The notes under the pieces: model-generated
Told to the model about the DNA's origin: nothing
The model's input: the letters and a program-made list of their open reading frames with translations, nothing else
The model's database searches: none
Made by a program: the position numbers and the translations under genes
Shown: in pieces, positions 1 through 44,332 of the stretch
How positions within the stretch are numbered: the first letter of the stretch is position 1
How the letters are laid out: each line of letters begins with the position of its first letter
Sequence record: NC_024783.1
Length of the DNA stretch: 44,332 bases
Source: Escherichia phage EK99P-1
Direction: 5' to 3' (one strand)

Positions 1-55
1 TATAATCCCACTTAGATGGCAGGGCCGTCTCCTATGTTGCCGATGGTCGGCGCAT

Positions 56-2023: not shown

Positions 2024-3544
2024 ATGACCGTTAACGTTGACAACCAGCACCCGCTCTATGCGCGCATCGCGCCAGAGTGGAAAATGATCCGTGATTGTGT
2101 GGCAGGGGAGCGCGCCGTGAAGGCGTGCGGCCCCTTGTACCTGCCTCATCCCGCCAGTGGCGACAACACTGACCCGAAAGCACGGGCGAGATATAAGGCG
2201 TATAAGCAACGCGCTGTATTCCTGAACGCCACCGCCCGCACACTTAACGCACTGTTAGGCGTTGCCTTCGCTAAACCGGTAAGTCTGGACCTTTCCGGGG
2301 CGATTGCGGACCTTATTGACGACGTAGACGGCAGTGGTATGCCGCTGCCGCAACTCCTGCGCGGTGCTATGTCGGAAGTGCTGCAATCAGGCCGTGCGGG
2401 CTTTATGGTGGACTACGATCGCCAGGCGCATTTTGATGAGCTGGGTAACGTAGTGCCGCAGACAGCCGCTGAGATGGCGTCACACCGCCCACTTATCCGC
2501 CTGTACACGGCAGAACAGATCATCAACTGGCGGCAGACCCACGGCGTAGATACGCTAATTGTGCTAAAGGAAACGGACGAAATCAGCACCGAAGACCCGG
2601 ACGACTTCGCAAACCACGAAGTAACAATATGGACCGAGCTTCGCATGATTAACGGTGCGGCACACGCCCGCCGCTGGTTTTATAACGCGGACACGTCCGA
2701 GGTGCAAATGGACTTGCCGCGTGGATTCACCCGCACCGACCTGGTGCCGCTGGTGGATGCCTCCGGTAAGGCACTGACTCAACTTCCGTTTTGCTGGTGT
2801 GGCGCGGTGGACAACAACGCGACGCCAGACGCCGCTCCGCTGGCAGATATCGCATCCATCAACATTAAGCACTACAACGCCGAAGCGGACGTCGCCGAGA
2901 TCGCGCACATCGTGGGCCAACCTACCCTGGTTGCGACGGGCTTGACTCAATCATGGGCGGACAAAAACCTGAAAGGCGGCATCGCGCTCGGAGCGACTAA
3001 GGGCGTTATTCTCGGTCAGAACATGGATGCTAAACTGATCCAGGCCGAGGAGCGCAACTTGTCTGTTGCACTGTGTGAGCGACGCGAATTGCAAATGGCT
3101 AAACTGGGCGCGGCCCTGGTTGAGAAGGGGACTGCACCTAAGACGGCAACCGAGGCGGCCTACGATGCGCAGACTGATAACAGTATCCTGTCGCTTATTG
3201 CCAGTAACGTTGAGAAGGCTTTCAACCGTGCGCTGCAAATCGTGCAGCTATTCACGGGGGACACCGCAGATCAACGTGTAACGCTGAATAAGTTCTACAC
3301 CGAGATCACGGTTGATGCACAGCTTATGACCGCGATGATGGCGGGTGTGCAGACGGGTACGGTCCGCCTGGCGGACTTCATCAAGTGGATGATGGCGCAG
3401 GGCGTCATCGACGACTCGCAAACCGTCGAGCAGGTTGAAGACGAATTGCGAAATCAGAATCCATTGCCTCAAATGTCCCCGGATGCGGTAGAATCTACCG
3501 AAGAAGACCCGGACAAGGTAGCGGACAATGGCGAAGACAATTAA
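2024..3544 (+). CDS. portal protein
   Basis: 506 aa, immediately downstream of terL, acidic C-terminus, RBS AAGGA before ATG. Confidence 0.8.
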   Translation: MTVNVDNQHPLYARIAPEWKMIRDCVAGERAVKACGPLYLPHPASGDNTDPKARARYKAYKQRAVFLNATARTLNALLGVAFAKPVSLDLSGAIADLIDDVDGSGMPLPQLLRGAMSEVLQSGRAGFMVDYDRQAHFDELGNVVPQTAAEMASHRPLIRLYTAEQIINWRQTHGVDTLIVLKETDEISTEDPDDFANHEVTIWTELRMINGAAHARRWFYNADTSEVQMDLPRGFTRTDLVPLVDASGKALTQLPFCWCGAVDNNATPDAAPLADIASINIKHYNAEADVAEIAHIVGQPTLVATGLTQSWADKNLKGGIALGATKGVILGQNMDAKLIQAEERNLSVALCERRELQMAKLGAALVEKGTAPKTATEAAYDAQTDNSILSLIASNVEKAFNRALQIVQLFTGDTADQRVTLNKFYTEITVDAQLMTAMMAGVQTGTVRLADFIKWMMAQGVIDDSQTVEQVEDELRNQNPLPQMSPDAVESTEEDPDKVADNGEDN

Positions 3545-4631
3545 TCAATATATGGCGGATCGAATGATTCGCCGACACATCTTCACCCAGCGCCTGAGTA
3601 ATGACCAGGCGCGGCGGGTGCTGGCTATGTGGGAGAAGTTCCGGCCCACGTTACTGGGTAAGCTGACCGAGTTACTTGATGGCAAAAAGTCCATGAACAA
3701 CAAGGCACTTACCACTCTGTTAACGCAACTCGACAAGACCGTCAAAACGGAACTGCGCACCGAGTTTAAGGCGTTGGCTGAAAGCCTTCAGGAGTTCGCC
3801 GACACCGAGGCCGATTATCTCGCCGACACATTAACGGCAGCGATCCAGCCGGTGGTCGCCGTACCTGCGGTCGAGGTGGTTGGCGTAGTGACCGGTGCTC
3901 AGATCGCAGCTACTGCAATGAAAAACCCGTTCCAGGGTAACACCATGATGCAGTGGCCCGATTCACTTTCCGAGTGGACCAGGACGCAGATCGGCAATCA
4001 GGTGCGCGCCGGATTCATCCAGGGCAAGCCGACGATGGAAATTATCGCGGATGTGAGGCGCACGCTAGGCGGTCGTAGTGCGCAAGCAATCTCAAGCGTT
4101 GTTAAGTCCGCGGTCAACCACTATGCGGCGACCGCCCGCGAATTAATGGTAAAAGCTAATGACGATATTCTCGAAGGTCGCCAATGGTTGGCTACATTGG
4201 ACACTCATACTTCCCCAATGTGCCAGCTACGCGATCGCCTGTTTTATCCTGTTGACGTCACTCCCGACACCAAAGGCAAGCGCGGCGGGAAAGTGGTGGC
4301 GGGATCACAATATGGCGCTGGACCGGGCAAGCTGCATTATTGCTGCCGTTCGACGGAGACGTGGAAAGTTAAGGGCATGGAAGATTGGCCCAGTGGTAAG
4401 CGTCCGGCACTGAAGCCTGACGCGGGCCGATTGCTGAGTGAGCAGGTCGACGCGCGGACTGATTTCTTCTCATGGGTGCAGCGCCAGCCGCGCCATATCC
4501 TGGAGGAATTATATGGAGTGCAACGCGCCGACCAGATTATGCGCGGCGTGAAAGTGCCGAAGATGTTTACCGATTCTGGCGAACTGATGACTATTGCACA
4601 GCTTAAAAACCGGGGGCTATGGCGTGATTAA
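3528..4631 (+). CDS. head morphogenesis protein (Mu F-like / SPP1 gp7-like minor head protein)
   Basis: 367 aa, overlaps the portal stop, conserved position after portal. Confidence 0.65.
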   Translation: MAKTINQYMADRMIRRHIFTQRLSNDQARRVLAMWEKFRPTLLGKLTELLDGKKSMNNKALTTLLTQLDKTVKTELRTEFKALAESLQEFADTEADYLADTLTAAIQPVVAVPAVEVVGVVTGAQIAATAMKNPFQGNTMMQWPDSLSEWTRTQIGNQVRAGFIQGKPTMEIIADVRRTLGGRSAQAISSVVKSAVNHYAATARELMVKANDDILEGRQWLATLDTHTSPMCQLRDRLFYPVDVTPDTKGKRGGKVVAGSQYGAGPGKLHYCCRSTETWKVKGMEDWPSGKRPALKPDAGRLLSEQVDARTDFFSWVQRQPRHILEELYGVQRADQIMRGVKVPKMFTDSGELMTIAQLKNRGLWRD

Positions 4632-4953
4632 GTATGCAGCTATTGGACTGGTTATAGGTCTGGCGGTAGGATTCTGGCTAGGTGACTCCTATCGCGCTGG
4701 CGTAGTGGCGGAGGCGGCGCAAGAAGCGCAAGCCAAAGCCCAACGGCAGCAAACTAAAGTTGTTGAGCGATCCGTGCAGGCCGAACAAGCCCGCGACGTA
4801 GAATACCGGACTATCACGAAAGAGGTTGTGAAATATGTTACGCGTCCTAACCGTCCTGATTGCAGTTTTGATGCTGAGCGCGTGCGGATCAAGCAGCGTG
4901 CCGTTGATGCCGCTAACGGAGTCGGCACTGCGACCGCCGTGCAAGTTCGATAA
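4624..4953 (+). CDS. Rz-like inner-membrane spanin (i-spanin)
   Basis: GTG start with GGGGG RBS. N-terminal TM helix (IKYAAIGLVIGLAVGFWLG), then a Q/A/E-rich helical periplasmic region. Partner lipoprotein ORF embedded in the +1 frame. Confidence 0.7.
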   Translation: MIKYAAIGLVIGLAVGFWLGDSYRAGVVAEAAQEAQAKAQRQQTKVVERSVQAEQARDVEYRTITKEVVKYVTRPNRPDCSFDAERVRIKQRAVDAANGVGTATAVQVR

Positions 4954-5065
4954 CCCGTCCGCGGACCCCGACGAAGATTTGATGATTGACGTGAAAAATA
5001 TGGAATGCGGGGCGAAGCTGAGGGCGCAGGTCCTGGAGTTGCAGCAGATAATTCGGGGGCCGTAA
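4835..5065 (+). CDS. Rz1-like outer-membrane lipoprotein spanin (o-spanin)
   Basis: Starts inside Rz in another frame and extends past the Rz stop. Signal peptide plus lipobox MLRVLTVLIAVLMLSAC, short Pro-containing mature part, RBS AGAGG. Confidence 0.7.
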   Translation: MLRVLTVLIAVLMLSACGSSSVPLMPLTESALRPPCKFDNPSADPDEDLMIDVKNMECGAKLRAQVLELQQIIRGP

Positions 5066-5080
5066 TGGCCCCCTTTTATT
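5055..5080 (+). terminator. rho-independent terminator after Rz1
   Basis: GGGGGCC-gtaat-GGCCCCC hairpin followed by TTTTATT, between convergent genes. Confidence 0.6.
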
Positions 5081-5843
5081 AGCGCGGAATACCGCAGATT
5101 TCGTTTAACGTCTTCACGTCCAGTGCCACCGCCGTGGACTTCGGCTTGTCCGGGTATGGAATAAACTGTTCCACTTCAGGCCACGCCTTGATCAGCTTCT
5201 TATCGGTATTGTGCATATCCAGCACGCCGGTCACAGTCAGCTTGAATGCGTCATACTTCGCACGCAACTCGCGGCGGGCCTTGTCGTTACGGTCCAGGCG
5301 CTTGCAGAAATCATGGTCCGCCGGGTAGTCTATACGACCGCATGACTTATATATCGGCAGCGCTTTCCCATCCTCGTCCACTTCGCACACAGAAGCCAGC
5401 ATTACTTCTTCGTACCCTGGTACAATATCGCCGAGATCTGGAGATAGCGTATTCATGTATTTATATTCCCAGTATCCGCGATGTACTCGGTATTGTCGTC
5501 CGTCACCGCTCAATGACAGTGTGCGCACATTTCCGCCCGCGTTGATTTCGAAAGTGGCGTCGTAAACGCTGCCGATGCCTTTTGGGCGGTCAGCATTATA
5601 TCTATACGTCGCCTTGTTGGTGTATACGCTTACTCCGTACATCTGCGACGGGTCATCGCCGATTGCTTTAATGCGCGCGAGTAGCTCGGCGAAAGTGCGA
5701 ATGCCTTCCGGCATACAGTCCAGCGTAATGGCGTACGCCAGGTCGCGCGAGTCCATCATGATGGATTTGGCTTCGGTCGCGATTTCATGGTCGCGCAGGA
5801 TGTTAGCCAGAATCTGGTTTTTAATGTCTTTCGTCAGTCTCAT
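5079..5843 (-). CDS. hypothetical protein (minus-strand moron in head module)
   Basis: 254 aa from the ATG at 5843 (RBS AAAGAGGA). Opposite strand to all flanking structural genes. No family recognised by eye. Confidence 0.6.
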   Translation of the reverse strand: MRLTKDIKNQILANILRDHEIATEAKSIMMDSRDLAYAITLDCMPEGIRTFAELLARIKAIGDDPSQMYGVSVYTNKATYRYNADRPKGIGSVYDATFEINAGGNVRTLSLSGDGRQYRVHRGYWEYKYMNTLSPDLGDIVPGYEEVMLASVCEVDEDGKALPIYKSCGRIDYPADHDFCKRLDRNDKARRELRAKYDAFKLTVTGVLDMHNTDKKLIKAWPEVEQFIPYPDKPKSTAVALDVKTLNEICGIPR

Positions 5844-5857
5844 TTGTGTGTCCTCTT

Positions 5858-6019
5858 TTAGTGGTTGTATAATTCGCCGCGTGCGTCGGCATCTTCCATT
5901 TGGTGTAGTGCGTGTTTCTGGTCCTGGCAAGGAATCCAGCGTTCCTCTAATTTATGCCAGAAGTAAAACACCCCGTTATCCAGCTTAATCTCGGCAATAC
6001 CGTTATTGAAAGTTAGCAT
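5858..6019 (-). CDS. hypothetical small protein (first gene of moron)
   Basis: 53 aa from the internal ATG at 6019 with RBS GAGGG, immediately downstream of a promoter-like element. Confidence 0.45.
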   Translation of the reverse strand: MLTFNNGIAEIKLDNGVFYFWHKLEERWIPCQDQKHALHQMEDADARGELYNH

Positions 6020-6036
6020 TTTGTTACCCTCATTTG

Positions 6037-6078
6037 TTGGTATGCAACCAATATACTGCAACCAATCCACCAATGCAA
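6037..6078 (-). promoter_or_regulatory. sigma70-like promoter for the moron, with downstream palindrome
   Basis: Minus strand: -35 TTGCAT (6073-6078), 17-nt spacer, -10 TATATT (6050-6055), then TTGGT-tgcat-ACCAA (6037-6051). Contains two ATTGGTTGCA boxes. Confidence 0.45.
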
Positions 6079-6168
6079 GCAAATTTTGCGATTATTTTTA
6101 TCGCTGATAATATTAGAAGCGTGAAGTCGAGCGGGTGGCCTGCTCTGCCACAATCCCAGGGGGATAGC

Positions 6169-21876: not shown

Positions 21877-22098
21877 TTACCACTCCCGTGATTTAACTGA
21901 TACTGTGCCTGAGAAGTTGCCGTCGCTATCGGATGACAGCCCGGTGAATCGCATGTCCACATCTCCTGCCGGGACTTTTTGCCCGTCAACGTAGCGCAAC
22001 ATGCAGCTACCGTAAGCAACCGTAACGCAATCGCCGTTGTTGCGTTCTACGGCGCAACCGGACAACAGAACCGCACAAATCATAATTAAAGTTTTCAT
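21877..22098 (-). CDS. small lipoprotein, putative superinfection exclusion protein (Cor/Llp-like)
   Basis: 73 aa. Signal peptide and lipobox MKTLIMICAVLLSGC, RBS GGAGATGA. Stop lies 3 nt before the RBP start. Confidence 0.55.
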   Translation of the reverse strand: MKTLIMICAVLLSGCAVERNNGDCVTVAYGSCMLRYVDGQKVPAGDVDMRFTGLSSDSDGNFSGTVSVKSREW

Positions 22099-41026: not shown

Positions 41027-41147
41027 GTGCGACGATCCGAGATATGCTTCAGCATAACCGCTTTGAGATAGGCGGTCGGGTATTTCGCAATTACTTCGTG
41101 GCGCGTGCATGGGCGCGCCATATTGGCAAACCGGAAGGGGCAATTCG

Positions 41148-41435
41148 ATGTTACACGATGTGATTTATTGGTTTGGTTTGATCTGGGGGCTGTGCCTGCT
41201 TACTGCGGTGCTGTTGGTCGTCCTGTTATTCGTAGTATGGCCCGCCGTGGAAGCCGCCAGCATTACCCGCATGACGTTCGAGATCTACAAGCGCCGTGGA
41301 ATCACGGAGCACCCGACCCGGCTTCGGATGTGGTGGCTGTGGTATCGGGATATGATAGGCGGTCGAACATTTGAAGCCGTCCGATCATCCGGGTGGGAGT
41401 GGAAAGGCGTCGGCAAGTGGTCCATTTTCGATTAA
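41148..41435 (+). CDS. small membrane protein
   Basis: 95 aa from the ATG at 41148 (RBS GGAAGGGG). One long TM helix (IYWFGLIWGLCLLTAVLLVVLLFVVW). Confidence 0.45.
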   Translation: MLHDVIYWFGLIWGLCLLTAVLLVVLLFVVWPAVEAASITRMTFEIYKRRGITEHPTRLRMWWLWYRDMIGGRTFEAVRSSGWEWKGVGKWSIFD

Positions 41436-41453
41436 TTATGCAAGCGTGATATA

Positions 41454-41487
41454 GTCCCAGTGAGCTAAAACTTACTGGGACTTTTTT
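41454..41487 (+). terminator. rho-independent terminator abutting the holin start codon
   Basis: GTCCCAGT-12 nt-ACTGGGAC followed by TTTTTT, then the ATG at 41488. Confidence 0.5.
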
Positions 41488-41778
41488 ATGGATAAGCTAA
41501 ACGAGTGGTTATTCGCCATTGCGTGTCTTGCTGGTGGCTTCGTAGGCGCACGCATTCATGGCGAGGCAACGAAAGGGCCGTTGAACTTCGTTTTATATGT
41601 CGTAGTTGGATTCCTGTGCGCCATATTTGGTGCGCCAGCTATCGCCGAGTGGGCTGGTTTATCTGGCGAGCGCACTGTCGCCGGTTTGGGCTTCGTAACT
41701 GCTATCTTCTGGATGCCAATAGCCGCCCGGATCAGGGAGACTATTGAGTCGTTCCGACTTCCGGGGGGCGCAAAATGA
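41488..41778 (+). CDS. holin (putative)
   Basis: 96 aa with about three TM segments, immediately upstream of a second membrane protein and the endolysin. Confidence 0.55.
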   Translation: MDKLNEWLFAIACLAGGFVGARIHGEATKGPLNFVLYVVVGFLCAIFGAPAIAEWAGLSGERTVAGLGFVTAIFWMPIAARIRETIESFRLPGGAK

Positions 41779-42020
41779 TTATCTCCGTCCTGTTGTTTGT
41801 TATCATAGGGGCTTCGTCCCTGTTTAACGTGTATGCGCCGTCCGTCCAGGATGGCTTCTTCGGTCGGGTGTTATATCTGCTAACGGCAATGACCTGTATT
41901 GTCGGTCTGTTGCAAACAGGAGACGTATCTGACACCACCTGGACCGCGTTAATCTGGTTGTTTGCATTGCGCACGCTGCGTAATGCTGTTTTGAATGGGG
42001 TAAAACATGCGATTCAGTGA
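41775..42020 (+). CDS. second holin / antiholin-like membrane protein
   Basis: 81 aa with two to three TM helices, overlaps both neighbours. Confidence 0.45.
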   Translation: MIISVLLFVIIGASSLFNVYAPSVQDGFFGRVLYLLTAMTCIVGLLQTGDVSDTTWTALIWLFALRTLRNAVLNGVKHAIQ

Positions 42021-42498
42021 CAACGGTCTACGATTTACGGCAGCATGGGAGACTTTCATCCCGGTGCCGTATTTCGCGACCAAGAAAGAGCAGGCCCGCG
42101 GCCTGTACACCTGGGGCTATGGTCATACTGGCACTAATCCGCCTCGAAGCATTACCCGTGCGGAAGCGCTGGAACTGCTCAAGCGTGATGTGGCGTATGC
42201 CGAGGACTGGGTGAACAAATACGCGCATAAGAGCATTAACCAGGCGCAATTCGACGCGCTGGTGGACCTGGTAATCAACGCTGGCCCTGGTCCGATCGTA
42301 CCGGATGACGTCGCGAATGATTTCGATGATGCGGTGCGGTTGGGCGACTGGGCGAAGGTCCGTGCTACGCTGCCGCTATTCCGCAAGCAAGGCGGGGAAG
42401 TGCTTAAGGGTCTTGTGCGCCGTGCAATCGGCAGACAGGCGTTATTTGATGGTAAGCAGTGGGACGTTGCCGAGCGAATCGGTCGTAACGCAGCATAA
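42007..42498 (+). CDS. endolysin, lysozyme (GH24-like)
   Basis: 163 aa. SDNGLRF...WGYGHTG matches the catalytic region pattern of P22/lambda-type lysozymes. Confidence 0.8.
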   Translation: MRFSDNGLRFTAAWETFIPVPYFATKKEQARGLYTWGYGHTGTNPPRSITRAEALELLKRDVAYAEDWVNKYAHKSINQAQFDALVDLVINAGPGPIVPDDVANDFDDAVRLGDWAKVRATLPLFRKQGGEVLKGLVRRAIGRQALFDGKQWDVAERIGRNAA

Positions 42499-42514: not shown

Positions 42515-42682
42515 ATGTTAAAAAGTATTCTTGATCATAATGCGGACGCGCTTGCCGCACTGGCTAAAACCGAAGATCCTGGCGCACGCGCTATCATCGC
42601 GGACACTATCAGCCACGCGGGGGTCTTCGATGCGAAGCTGCCAAGCCCGCCACCACCGGAAGAACCAGGCCCCGCAGCATAA
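42515..42682 (+). CDS. hypothetical small protein
   Basis: 55 aa (MLKSILDHNADALAALAK...), RBS GAGGTGA, followed by a terminator. Below the ORF-track cutoff. Confidence 0.35.
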   Translation: MLKSILDHNADALAALAKTEDPGARAIIADTISHAGVFDAKLPSPPPPEEPGPAA

Positions 42683-42688
42683 AACCAC

Positions 42689-42714
42689 AAGCCCGGTTAA
42701 TTCCGGGCTTTTTA
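42689..42714 (+). terminator. rho-independent terminator after the lysis genes
   Basis: AAGCCCGG-ttaatt-CCGGGCTT followed by TTTTT. Confidence 0.65.
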
Positions 42715-42776
42715 TTGCTTTACTTGCAACCAACTATCAGACTATACTGCGACCAATCAACGAGAGGAGTAATACT

Positions 42777-43004
42777 ATGGAACCTGAATTAATCTGCATG
42801 GTCATCTGTCATGAATCTGCTACGCGCGCCGTAATCACGTATCTGGAATATGGTGTTTTCCTGATTGACGATAAGTATTACGTTATGAATGAGCACGGGA
42901 ACTGGACTGAAGTATTCAAGTTTAGCGATACGCGCGGTGTATGGATAACTATCGACGGCATAAGCGCCGCTTTCACTGAGATTGAGTTACACTATGGCAC
43001 GTAA
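42777..43004 (+). CDS. hypothetical protein
   Basis: 75 aa, RBS GAGAGGAG, preceded by TTGCAACCAA and TATACTGCGACCAAT elements. Confidence 0.5.
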   Translation: MEPELICMVICHESATRAVITYLEYGVFLIDDKYYVMNEHGNWTEVFKFSDTRGVWITIDGISAAFTEIELHYGT

Positions 43005-44295: not shown

Positions 44296-44326
44296 CCCAG
44301 CCTGCCGATTTGGTGGGCTTTTTTGT
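44296..44326 (+). terminator. putative terminator at window end
   Basis: Imperfect GC-rich hairpin followed by CTTTTTTG. Confidence 0.4.
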
Positions 44327-44332
44327 GCCTGT

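Follow-up and report, generated by a model that had tools for sequence, protein, structure and literature searches.

The window analysed here, the whole 44,332-nucleotide stretch of Escherichia phage EK99P-1 (NC_024783.1), belongs to a Dhillonvirus, an HK578-like E. coli siphophage, and carries two overlapping open reading frames directly 3' of its head morphogenesis gene:

3528..4631, + strand: head morphogenesis gene (SPP1 gp7 / Mu F-like; phrog_241, E=2.1e-117)
4624..4953, + strand: i-spanin (Rz-like), GTG at 4624, TAA at 4951-4953, 109 aa (phrog_2536, E=4.5e-37)
4633..4683, + strand: N-terminal transmembrane anchor of the i-spanin, residues ~4-20 (YAAIGLVIGLAVGFWLG), from hydropathy
4820..4825, + strand: Shine-Dalgarno AAGAGG for Rz1, 9 nt before the ATG, from the sequence
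4835..5065, + strand: o-spanin (Rz1-like) lipoprotein precursor, ATG at 4835, TAA at 5063-5065, 76 aa (phrog_5672, E=1e-26; phrog_1267, E=2.3e-12)
4874..4885, + strand: lipobox L-S-A-C with Cys17 as the lipidated residue, from the sequence

Both reading frames matched PHROGs of Rz-like spanins, in agreement with a preliminary description of this DNA that had called them Rz-like and Rz1-like and had placed them immediately after the head morphogenesis gene, a position that the coordinates and PHROG matches bear out. Rz begins before the head morphogenesis gene has ended, the stop of the one and the start of the other sharing 8 nt (4624-4631, GTGATTAA), and Rz appears to be translationally coupled to that gene; GGGGG at 4613-4617 may serve as its ribosome-binding site. 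Residues 1-19 of Rz gave a 19-residue Kyte-Doolittle mean of 2.02, with no second hydrophobic segment elsewhere in the protein and with K3 on the cytoplasmic (N) side, which describes a single N-terminal transmembrane domain oriented N-in/C-out; the anchor on which the Rz-like assignment had been made to depend is therefore present by hydropathy. A single-sequence AlphaFold2 model, of low confidence (mean pLDDT 58.6) and for that reason only weakly supportive of a helical periplasmic domain, placed one helix at residues 5-72 and another at 84-97, joined by a linker (73-83), in agreement with the two-helix organisation described for the EP23-SO-1 subfamily (PMC6139136). Alignment of homologues revealed an invariant C80 and conservation of the motif VVKYV.RP.R..C.F. 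The protein is 99% identical to its JL1 counterpart; C-terminal variants of 109 aa and 102 aa occur among dhillonviruses, and Bas84 (PQ850611) carries an annotated i-spanin at the equivalent place.

Since (4835-4624) mod 3 = 1, Rz1 lies in the +1 frame relative to Rz. The two genes overlap by 119 nt, and the remaining 112 nt of Rz1 follow the Rz stop, so that the architecture is "overlapped" rather than embedded, exactly as the earlier coordinates had it. The Shine-Dalgarno of Rz1 sits within a conserved i-spanin motif, (E/D)V(V/I)KY(V/I), which reads EVVKYV in the window. The N-terminus of Rz1 (MLR-VLTVLIAVLM-LSAC-GS) combines R3, a hydrophobic core and the lipobox whose presence the preliminary description had left for confirmation, followed by Gly at +2 and Ser at +3; as these positions lack the Asp retention signal, sorting to the outer membrane is expected. 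The lipobox was retained in 16/16 dhillonviruses (as MSAC in L016), and its Cys is also found in the homologues from Kagunavirus K1H, Jerseyvirus wksl3, L022, L021 and Klebsiella phage BUCT541. Four Rz1 residues, C36, D46, E47 and C58, stay unchanged in homologues as distant as 22-39% identity (C36 and C58 in 8 sequences, down to 22%). Such lipoprotein signals are rare: only 3 of the 1586 start/ORF combinations of the window carry one, and the same whole-window scan gave none near the holin and endolysin genes.

We then considered the family to which the pair belongs. Pfam gave no match for Rz at E<=0.1 and a sub-threshold LptM match only for Rz1, so membership rests on the PHROGs and on the published listing of the Jersey overlapped i-/o-spanin families, which includes HK578, EP23, JL1, SSL-2009a, EK99P-1 and SO-1 and contains a shorter "EP23 to SO-1" subfamily (Kongari et al. 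2018, PMC6139136). With EP23, HK578, JL1, SSL-2009a and SO-1 the window shares phage genus, overlapped +1 architecture and cysteines, Rz C80 and Rz1 C36/C58 coinciding with the Cys positions published as constant in the Jersey family (PMC6139136). Nothing substantive separates the pair from the short subfamily, of which it is another allele. The combination of phrog_2536 and phrog_5672 has been reported in Jerseyvirus SeF1 as well (PMC9409062); a literature search returned no experiment on any Jersey-family spanin.

Both reading frames were intact in all 16 dhillonvirus copies compared, as was the GTG start of Rz (16/16). In the non-overlapped part of Rz, the synonymous fraction of codon differences was 0.68 in the Rz frame against 0.11 in the other frame, whereas downstream of the Rz stop it was 0.70 in the Rz1 frame and 0.04 in that of Rz. 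Purifying selection thus leaves a signature that changes frame at the Rz stop, as expected of this architecture. Two minus-strand reading frames within the region (4678..4944 and 4689..4928) were set aside, the two + strand frames accounting fully for how variation is distributed over codon positions. Taken with the PHROG E-values and the rarity of lipoprotein signals, the 16/16 intact reading frames place the spanin calls far beyond chance.

The genes expected to act before the spanins in lysis lie near the other end of the window:

41488..41778, + strand: holin-family gene 1, 96 aa (phrog_2359, E=3.6e-32)
41775..42020, + strand: holin-family gene 2, 81 aa (phrog_2508, E=7.8e-28)
42007..42498, + strand: endolysin, T4-lysozyme-type muramidase (PF00959 phage lysozyme, E=2.8e-20; phrog_7)

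A hydropathy scan of the first holin-family product found hydrophobic stretches at approximately residues 28-58 and 64-82, which we read as three probable membrane segments. The second may be its antiholin partner, a holin/antiholin pair being annotated in related phages (PMC6763661). The endolysin has no signal-anchor-release or signal sequence (maximum hydropathy 1.02). The PHROG and Pfam matches uphold the placement of a holin-family pair and a lysozyme within 41488-42498, and the separation of about 6.5 kb proposed between them and the spanins is likewise accurate, at 44332-42498+4623 = 6457 nt across the window ends, which are contiguous in related genomes. Seven genes fill this gap: an ORF at 42515-42682, a small ORF at 42777-43004, an exonuclease, TerS, TerL, portal and head morphogenesis. 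With its spanins away from holin and endolysin, the phage lacks a canonical contiguous lysis cassette of the lambda S-R-Rz/Rz1 type.

The comparison of synteny that the preliminary description had recommended showed the same split in every one of the 10 IMG/VR dhillonvirus loci, from a set of 14, that extend far enough upstream to include the lysis genes; the other four and Bas84 run from TerS to the major capsid protein, with spanins at the equivalent position. More widely, tblastn matched 658 phage records, Jerseyvirus and Kagunavirus among them. In Kagunavirus K1H the whole layout recurs, with holin-holin-endolysin ~7.5 kb upstream of the spanins across terminase, portal and head morphogenesis genes. 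The spanins of K1H and of Jerseyvirus wksl3 are in the head module, as in the window, those of wksl3 being flanked by the head morphogenesis/Hoc-like genes on one side and the scaffold gene on the other, and for the Guernseyvirinae-like phage Schulenberg the split has been stated explicitly (PMC6763661). Protein identity between the window and K1H/Guernseyvirinae is just 37-51%, and the latter, unlike the window, have a Hoc-like decoration gene between head morphogenesis and spanins. In K1H, terminator-like hairpins precede the spanins and the scaffold gene follows directly, whereas in the window the spanins appear to be coupled to head morphogenesis and are followed by a terminator-like hairpin and a minus-strand gene.

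Dhillonvirus and Guernseyvirinae both conserve the split layout, which is ancestral to them. We put at roughly 90% the probability that 4624-5065 encodes a true Jersey-family spanin of two components, with overlapped architecture in a conserved split layout; this figure covers spanin identity and the conserved layout, and the transcription units are graded apart below. The arrangement is real, ordinary and already known for this phage group and its relatives. Lysis genes that do not cluster have their textbook example in T4 PseT.3/PseT.2, likewise not near the holin/endolysin genes (PMC6139136), although T4 has the "separated" architecture and a sequence family unrelated to that of the window. 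The same spanin family also occurs in contiguous cassettes, holin-holin-endolysin-Rz-Rz1 in IMG/VR contig L022 and endolysin-holin-Rz/Rz1 in Roufvirus pIS4-A and Klebsiella phage BUCT541. We considered whether the spanin position in the window is the remnant of a complete cassette such as that of Roufvirus (endolysin-holin-Rz/Rz1, 3' of head morphogenesis), and dropped this idea, since the Roufvirus portal and head genes have no detectable similarity to those of the window and so give no support to a common origin of the position.

The mechanism proposed for the pair follows the lambda Rz/Rz1 paradigm. Like the window, lambda combines a type II inner-membrane protein with a lipoprotein of the outer membrane that is read in the +1 frame, and periplasmic cysteines are shared too, and membrane fusion is the presumed mechanism in each; the two differ in that no Pfam-level sequence similarity was detected, in that lambda Rz1 is embedded whereas Rz1 of the window is overlapped, and in that the lambda spanins stand within the S-R-Rz/Rz1 cassette, whereas those of the window do not adjoin holin and endolysin. 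On this model, the N-terminal helix of the i-spanin would anchor in the inner membrane with its helical domain in the periplasm, the o-spanin would receive its lipid at Cys17 and reach the inner leaflet of the outer membrane, and the two would bind each other across the periplasm, with Rz C80 and Rz1 C36 and C58 available for covalent homodimers. The complexes would build up harmlessly, threaded through the peptidoglycan mesh, until the holin frees the endolysin and the wall is degraded; they would then bring about fusion of the inner membrane with the outer, and the progeny would be released.

We investigated how the two loci might be transcribed. The relevant sites, all consensus matches, are:

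41447..41482, + strand: extended -10-like TGATATAGT (41447-41455) and an overlapping 12-bp hairpin with T-run (41453-41482), directly before the holin ATG
42689..42710, + strand: terminator-like hairpin after the lysis cassette and small ORF 42515-42682, then a -35/-10-like pair at 42719-42748
44299..44332, + strand: terminator-like hairpin (44299-44319) with T-run, -35-like TTGGTG (44310-44315) and the TG (44330-44331) of an extended -10
1..6, + strand: TATAAT, -10 hexamer of a promoter-like site that lies across the junction of the window ends, upstream of TerS (ATG 56 or 77)
5055..5080, + strand: intrinsic-terminator-like hairpin GGGGGCC-GTAAT-GGCCCCC then TTTTATT, kept in 16/16 dhillonviruses

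The last of these is built into the spanin gene itself: the 5' arm of the hairpin (5055-5073) is formed by the last Rz1 codons and the Rz1 stop codon lies in its loop, and the hairpin also stands 6 nt beyond the stop of a convergent minus-strand Nmad5 gene. The stem of the pre-holin hairpin gains one C-G pair in L018 through matching insertions in both arms, and the hairpin at 42689-42710 is kept in relatives that have the short ORF after the endolysin (L008, L012, L013, L017, L019). TATAAT at 1..6 is conserved in 10 relatives, with TGATATAAT ~13 nt further downstream in the divergent L018. Over the window as a whole, promoter-like and terminator-like sites were no more numerous than in shuffled sequence, and scanning with a standard sigma-70 model gave no convincing + strand promoter ahead of the holin or the spanin locus; the only grounds for arguing that these particular sites are real are their conservation and their placement at gene boundaries. 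A shared signature, TGNTATARTCC, was not enriched (4 matches vs 3.2 expected), and we therefore claim no phage-specific promoter class.

The junction-spanning site is a candidate promoter for a TerS-TerL-portal-head morphogenesis-Rz-Rz1 unit, of which Rz/Rz1 would be the last cistron pair, with the putative terminator at 5055-5073. Three strong + strand hairpins between or around the loci and the conserved extended -10 sites before holin and TerS make separate transcription plausible, and we consider the odds about even that there are two predicted units, one from holin to endolysin and the other from TerS via portal and head morphogenesis to Rz/Rz1. The stronger proposition, that the spanins are hard-wired to the packaging/head operon by the extended -10 promoter at the junction, the coupling of Rz to head morphogenesis and the terminator in the last Rz1 codons, is less likely than not, and we advance it tentatively. 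If true, spanin dosage would track the expression of capsid-assembly genes and not that of holin and endolysin, the K1H spanin locus would appear to have switched its allegiance to the scaffold/capsid unit, and the clade would be a natural system in which to ask whether spanin level or timing matters for lysis.

Alternatively, everything from holin to Rz1 could be one long late transcript whose hairpins are leaky or bypassed by phage-directed antitermination, leaving the split without regulatory meaning. In favour of this reading, the genes from 41488 to 5065 all lie on the + strand, separated by short intergenic gaps, and the site totals are no higher than in shuffled sequence; nevertheless we find it rather unlikely, considering that the hairpins are long (8-12 bp) and rich in G+C, with T-runs behind them, and are located exactly at gene boundaries, that changes on both arms maintain them in divergent relatives, and that a conserved -10-like element comes after each.

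The preliminary description had gone further and taken the split to imply separate transcriptional timing for the spanins, which would make it a timing device, with spanins following the packaging/head operon and holin/endolysin on a separately regulated promoter. Its gene identities, overlapped architecture and physical split all stand; the further step to separate timing we judge distinctly improbable. Three conserved terminator-like hairpins do part or bracket the loci, each locus has a promoter-like site, and in K1H hairpins at 4334-4353 and 4794-4813 set the spanins apart from the genes upstream. Against this, the promoter-like sites TGATATAGTCCC and TGTTATAATCCC are similar, suggesting one class rather than two; all genes from holin to Rz1 are co-directional, and separate units could share one late time. 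The spanins are moreover at the 3' end of a predicted terminase-portal unit in Dhillonvirus but at the 5' end of a scaffold-capsid unit in K1H, a difference that speaks against fine tuning of the arrangement. In the accepted spanin model, action awaits removal of the peptidoglycan whatever the time of protein synthesis, so that a split cassette needs no timing of its own. One search of the literature yielded no transcript data, time-courses included, for dhillonviruses.

A role outside lysis, in which the pair would be a membrane-anchored protein and a lipoprotein for head assembly or superinfection exclusion, would explain its place between head morphogenesis and scaffold genes and would sit well with the absence of a Pfam Rz/Rz1 match and with a second small lipoprotein, Cor-like, at 22098..21877, yet is highly improbable, given that homologues of both genes are the last of contiguous holin-endolysin cassettes in unrelated phages, that the genome offers no alternative spanin candidate despite a Gram-negative host and a canonical endolysin, and that the paired architecture, conserved cysteines and sizes fit the definition of a spanin.

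For the phage group, the main value of identifying 4624-5065 as a spanin pair is one of annotation: many GenBank dhillonvirus records label one or both reading frames "hypothetical protein", an overlapped o-spanin tends to be missed by automated callers, and correct calls bear on the vetting of genomes for phage therapy and on the engineering of lysis timing. The split layout opens no new question; it adds one more case of spanin genes unlinked to holin and endolysin, and agrees with the view of spanins as gated by degradation of the wall, not by their own expression.

Megablast queries covering 3500–6100 and 1–25000 matched about 156 phage records at 90–95% identity, nearly all of them Escherichia and Shigella phages assigned to Dhillonvirus, a genus of ~44-kb HK578-like siphophages. 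The window begins a short way before the gene for the small terminase (TerS), and the last and first bases adjoin in related genomes. It can therefore be treated as a whole genome cut open at an arbitrary position, and a distance across its ends is meaningful: the endolysin stop is 6457 nt from the Rz start. The preliminary description had put this spacing at ~6.5 kb, and its coordinates for the spanin and lysis genes all held on re-inspection of the sequence.

Features of the spanin region, the lysis genes and the predicted hairpins (window coordinates)
3528–4631, + strand: head morphogenesis gene (phrog_241, E = 2e-117)
4624–4953, + strand: Rz-like ORF, GTG start, stop at 4951–4953, 109 aa
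4835–5065, + strand: Rz1-like ORF, ATG start, 76 aa
5055–5073, + strand: hairpin with T-run overlapping the last Rz1 codons, kept in 16/16 genomes
5079–5846, − strand: Nmad5-domain protein gene (PF18757, E = 1e-57)
5858–6082, − strand: small ORF in the variable island beside the Nmad5 gene
41453–41482, + strand: hairpin with T-run just before holin
41488–41778, + strand: holin-family gene 1 (phrog_2359)
41775–42020, + strand: holin-family gene 2 (phrog_2508)
42007–42498, + strand: endolysin (PF00959, E = 2.8e-20)
42689–42710, + strand: hairpin with T-run after the lysis cassette
44299–44319, + strand: hairpin with T-run before TerS

The Rz start, with GGGGG 6 nt to its 5′ side, and the head morphogenesis stop overlap in GTGATTAA, an arrangement typical of translational coupling; AAGAGG lies 9 nt upstream of the Rz1 ATG. 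Rz1 occupies the +1 frame with respect to Rz, has 119 nt in common with it and runs 112 nt past its stop, so the architecture is, as originally stated, "overlapped" and not "embedded". A Kyte-Doolittle scan of the whole Rz protein revealed one hydrophobic segment at the extreme N-terminus (mean 2.02), as expected of a membrane anchor, and no second segment. The lipobox anticipated in Rz1 was recovered in a textbook-like lipoprotein signal (R3, hydrophobic core, LSAC with Cys17, then Gly-Ser), with no Asp at position +2 that would retain the protein in the inner membrane. A scan of every start/ORF combination in the window of 40 aa or more (1586 in total) turned up only three with such a signal: Rz1, a Cor-like lipoprotein encoded on the opposite strand (~22 kb) and one doubtful case. 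It revealed no further spanin candidate, whether two-component or unimolecular, near the lysis cassette. The second small lipoprotein ORF (21877–22098, − strand, 73 aa, starting MKTLIMICAVLLSGC) matches phrog_4281 (E = 1.6e-33) and, weakly, phrog_1119, the Cor superinfection-exclusion family; its product is probably a receptor-blocking exclusion lipoprotein, not a spanin.

Rz matched the PHROG profile phrog_2536 (E = 4.5e-37), and Rz1 matched phrog_5672 (E = 1e-26) and phrog_1267, all three labelled "Rz-like spanin"; a Pfam search of both proteins gave nothing useful. Using Rz as a tblastn query, we found 658 phage records, ~155 of them dhillonviruses and a further several hundred Salmonella and E. 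coli Guernseyvirinae phages (Jerseyvirus, Kagunavirus), the latter matching only part of the protein, at <60% identity and mostly ~35–60%. A low-confidence AlphaFold2 single-sequence model of Rz (pLDDT 58.6) predicts a long helix (5–72), a linker (73–83) and a second helix (84–97). In another IMG/VR contig (L022), holin, holin, endolysin, Rz and Rz1 stand just 5′ of a lambda-like terminase, and in Roufvirus pIS4-A and Klebsiella phage BUCT541 endolysin, holin and Rz/Rz1 are contiguous. Both families thus close contiguous lysis cassettes elsewhere, which ties them to lysis independently of their name.

We compared 16 dhillonvirus copies (the window, the GenBank dhillonvirus Bas84 and 14 IMG/VR contigs), and both ORFs were intact in 16/16, each with its start codon kept (GTG for Rz, ATG for Rz1). 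Before the overlap begins, synonymous changes made up 68% of codon differences when read in the Rz frame and 11% in that of Rz1; past the Rz stop, the corresponding shares were 70% for the Rz1 frame and 4% for the Rz frame; inside the overlap both frames were intermediate (33% and 36%). The substitution pattern switches frame as expected and, as evolutionary evidence, speaks for translation of the o-spanin frame, on which the preliminary description depended. In alignments down to 22–39% identity, Rz retains C80 and the motif VVKYV.RP.R..C.F, and Rz1 retains C36, D46-E47 and C58; the DNA of the i-spanin motif (E/D)V(V/I)KY(V/I), EVVKYV in the window, doubles as o-spanin ribosome-binding site and start codon. 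The pair diverges more than its neighbours (84–87% protein identity in L013, L016 and L017 versus 97–100% for flanking head genes), and Rz occurs in C-terminal variants of 109 and 102 aa among dhillonviruses, a pattern suggesting that alleles of the spanin cassette have been exchanged within the genus.

By analogy with the lambda paradigm, the i-spanin would be anchored in the inner membrane, its helical domain projecting into the periplasm, and the o-spanin would acquire its lipid and be sent on to the outer membrane. Both proteins would pair across the periplasm, probably as dimers joined by disulfide bonds through the conserved cysteines, and be kept inactive by the peptidoglycan mesh until holin gives the soluble endolysin access to the wall, whereupon the complexes would fuse both membranes. 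The endolysin has neither signal-anchor nor signal sequence (maximum hydropathy 1.02).

The dhillonvirus gene order is holin-holin-endolysin ... TerS-TerL-portal-head morphogenesis-Rz/Rz1-(variable minus-strand gene)-scaffold-major capsid protein. Synteny, proposed earlier as a check, revealed this full split order in 10 of the 14 IMG/VR loci, i.e., every one reaching far enough upstream; the remaining four and Bas84 extend from TerS to the major capsid protein, with spanins at the same place. Kagunavirus K1H has the whole split layout, and in Jerseyvirus wksl3 the spanins are flanked by head morphogenesis/Hoc-like genes on one side and by the scaffold gene on the other, indicating that the arrangement predates the divergence of these groups. 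We put the probability of the spanin identity and the conserved split layout at about 0.9. The convergent minus-strand genes after the spanins form a variable island (5079–6082), the Nmad5 gene being absent or replaced in 4/14 IMG/VR dhillonviruses (L007, L009, L015, L016) with both flanks 96–100% conserved.

The split had been taken to imply separate timing of the spanins; separate transcription found support in hairpins and promoter-like sites, but separate timing did not. The four hairpins on the + strand are strong ones, their stems are retained in divergent relatives through changes on both arms, and extended −10-like elements follow two of them: TGATATAGT at 41447–41455 before holin and TGtTATAAT before TerS. 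Joining 44299–44332 to 1–32 gives a terminator hairpin, then a promoter-like TTGGTG-17 nt-TG-T-TATAAT; scans that do not wrap the window ends miss this −10 because its TATAAT is bases 1–6. The element is kept in ten relatives, and contig L018, which is divergent, carries TGATATAAT at a position ~13 nt farther downstream. No extended −10-like element was found on the + strand from TerS to Rz. These features suggest two separate transcription units, although promoter- and terminator-like site counts over the whole scan do not exceed shuffled expectation. The most economical reading, to which we give even odds, is that Rz and Rz1 would be the last cistrons of a ~5-kb TerS-to-Rz1 unit, with holin and endolysin in their own. 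The TerS leader also contains a small hairpin (AGATGGC-AGG-GCCGTCT, 14–30), kept in L018 with both arms changed (AGGTGG...CCACCT). The longest TerS ORF starts at ATG 56, but ATG 77, annotated in Bas84, has the better ribosome-binding site (AAAAGGG, 62–68) and is probably the start.

As to timing, the pre-holin and pre-TerS promoter-like sites resemble each other, the genes from holin through Rz1 are all co-directional, and a literature search found no Dhillonvirus transcript data. In the accepted model, spanins build up during the late period and are set off when the wall is degraded, which calls for no special timing. K1H resembles dhillonviruses in gene order but differs in predicted unit membership: a ~500-nt gap (4331–4837) with two terminator-like hairpins (4334–4353, 4794–4813) precedes its spanins, which run into the scaffold gene without an intervening terminator. 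Different predicted units in two lineages argue against a finely tuned timing device. More tentatively, spanin dosage may be hard-wired to the packaging/head operon and re-wired in K1H.

The holin ATG (41488) directly follows a 12-bp hairpin with T-run, and no clear Shine-Dalgarno was found outside the stem (41447–41490). TGATATAGT extends into the 5′ arm; transcription begun there would leave this arm out, freeing GGGA of the 3′ arm. The element, kept in 10 relatives (the L018 stem gains one C-G pair), could be a terminator/promoter overlap or translational control. Immediately upstream, across the hairpin, 41109–41435 (+) encodes a 108-aa product whose N-terminus bears a single very hydrophobic segment (Kyte-Doolittle mean 3.0); it matches phrog_2531, a family of unknown function, and might be a lysis regulator or exclusion protein. 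After endolysin, a 55-aa ORF (42515–42682) is the N-terminal stump of a gene longer in L007, L010, L014, L015 and L018, where the frame stays open for at least 150 nt more, entering a repeat-like stretch ('VTVAP...ATNK'), and the 300 nt read there contain no terminator hairpin. The frame of the window ends early, before the hairpin at 42689–42710.

The split spanin finding is correct and already known. Kongari et al. 2018 (PMC6139136) placed HK578, EP23, JL1, SSL-2009a, EK99P-1 and SO-1 in overlapped "Jersey" i-/o-spanin families, described a shorter "EP23 to SO-1" subfamily, and noted the constant cysteines. T4 is the classic case of unclustered lysis genes, and for phage Schulenberg a published account (PMC6763661) already states the split. 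The Rz of JL1 is 99% identical to that of the window, and spanins are annotated at this position in GenBank records such as Bas84 (PQ850611), Pubbukkers, Opt212 and SECphi18; the SeF1 (PMC9409062) and Golestan papers show the same gene-numbering gap without comment. What we add is small: a promoter-like site spanning the junction of the genome ends, a predicted terminator in the Rz1 stop region, and a different predicted unit for the spanins of K1H.
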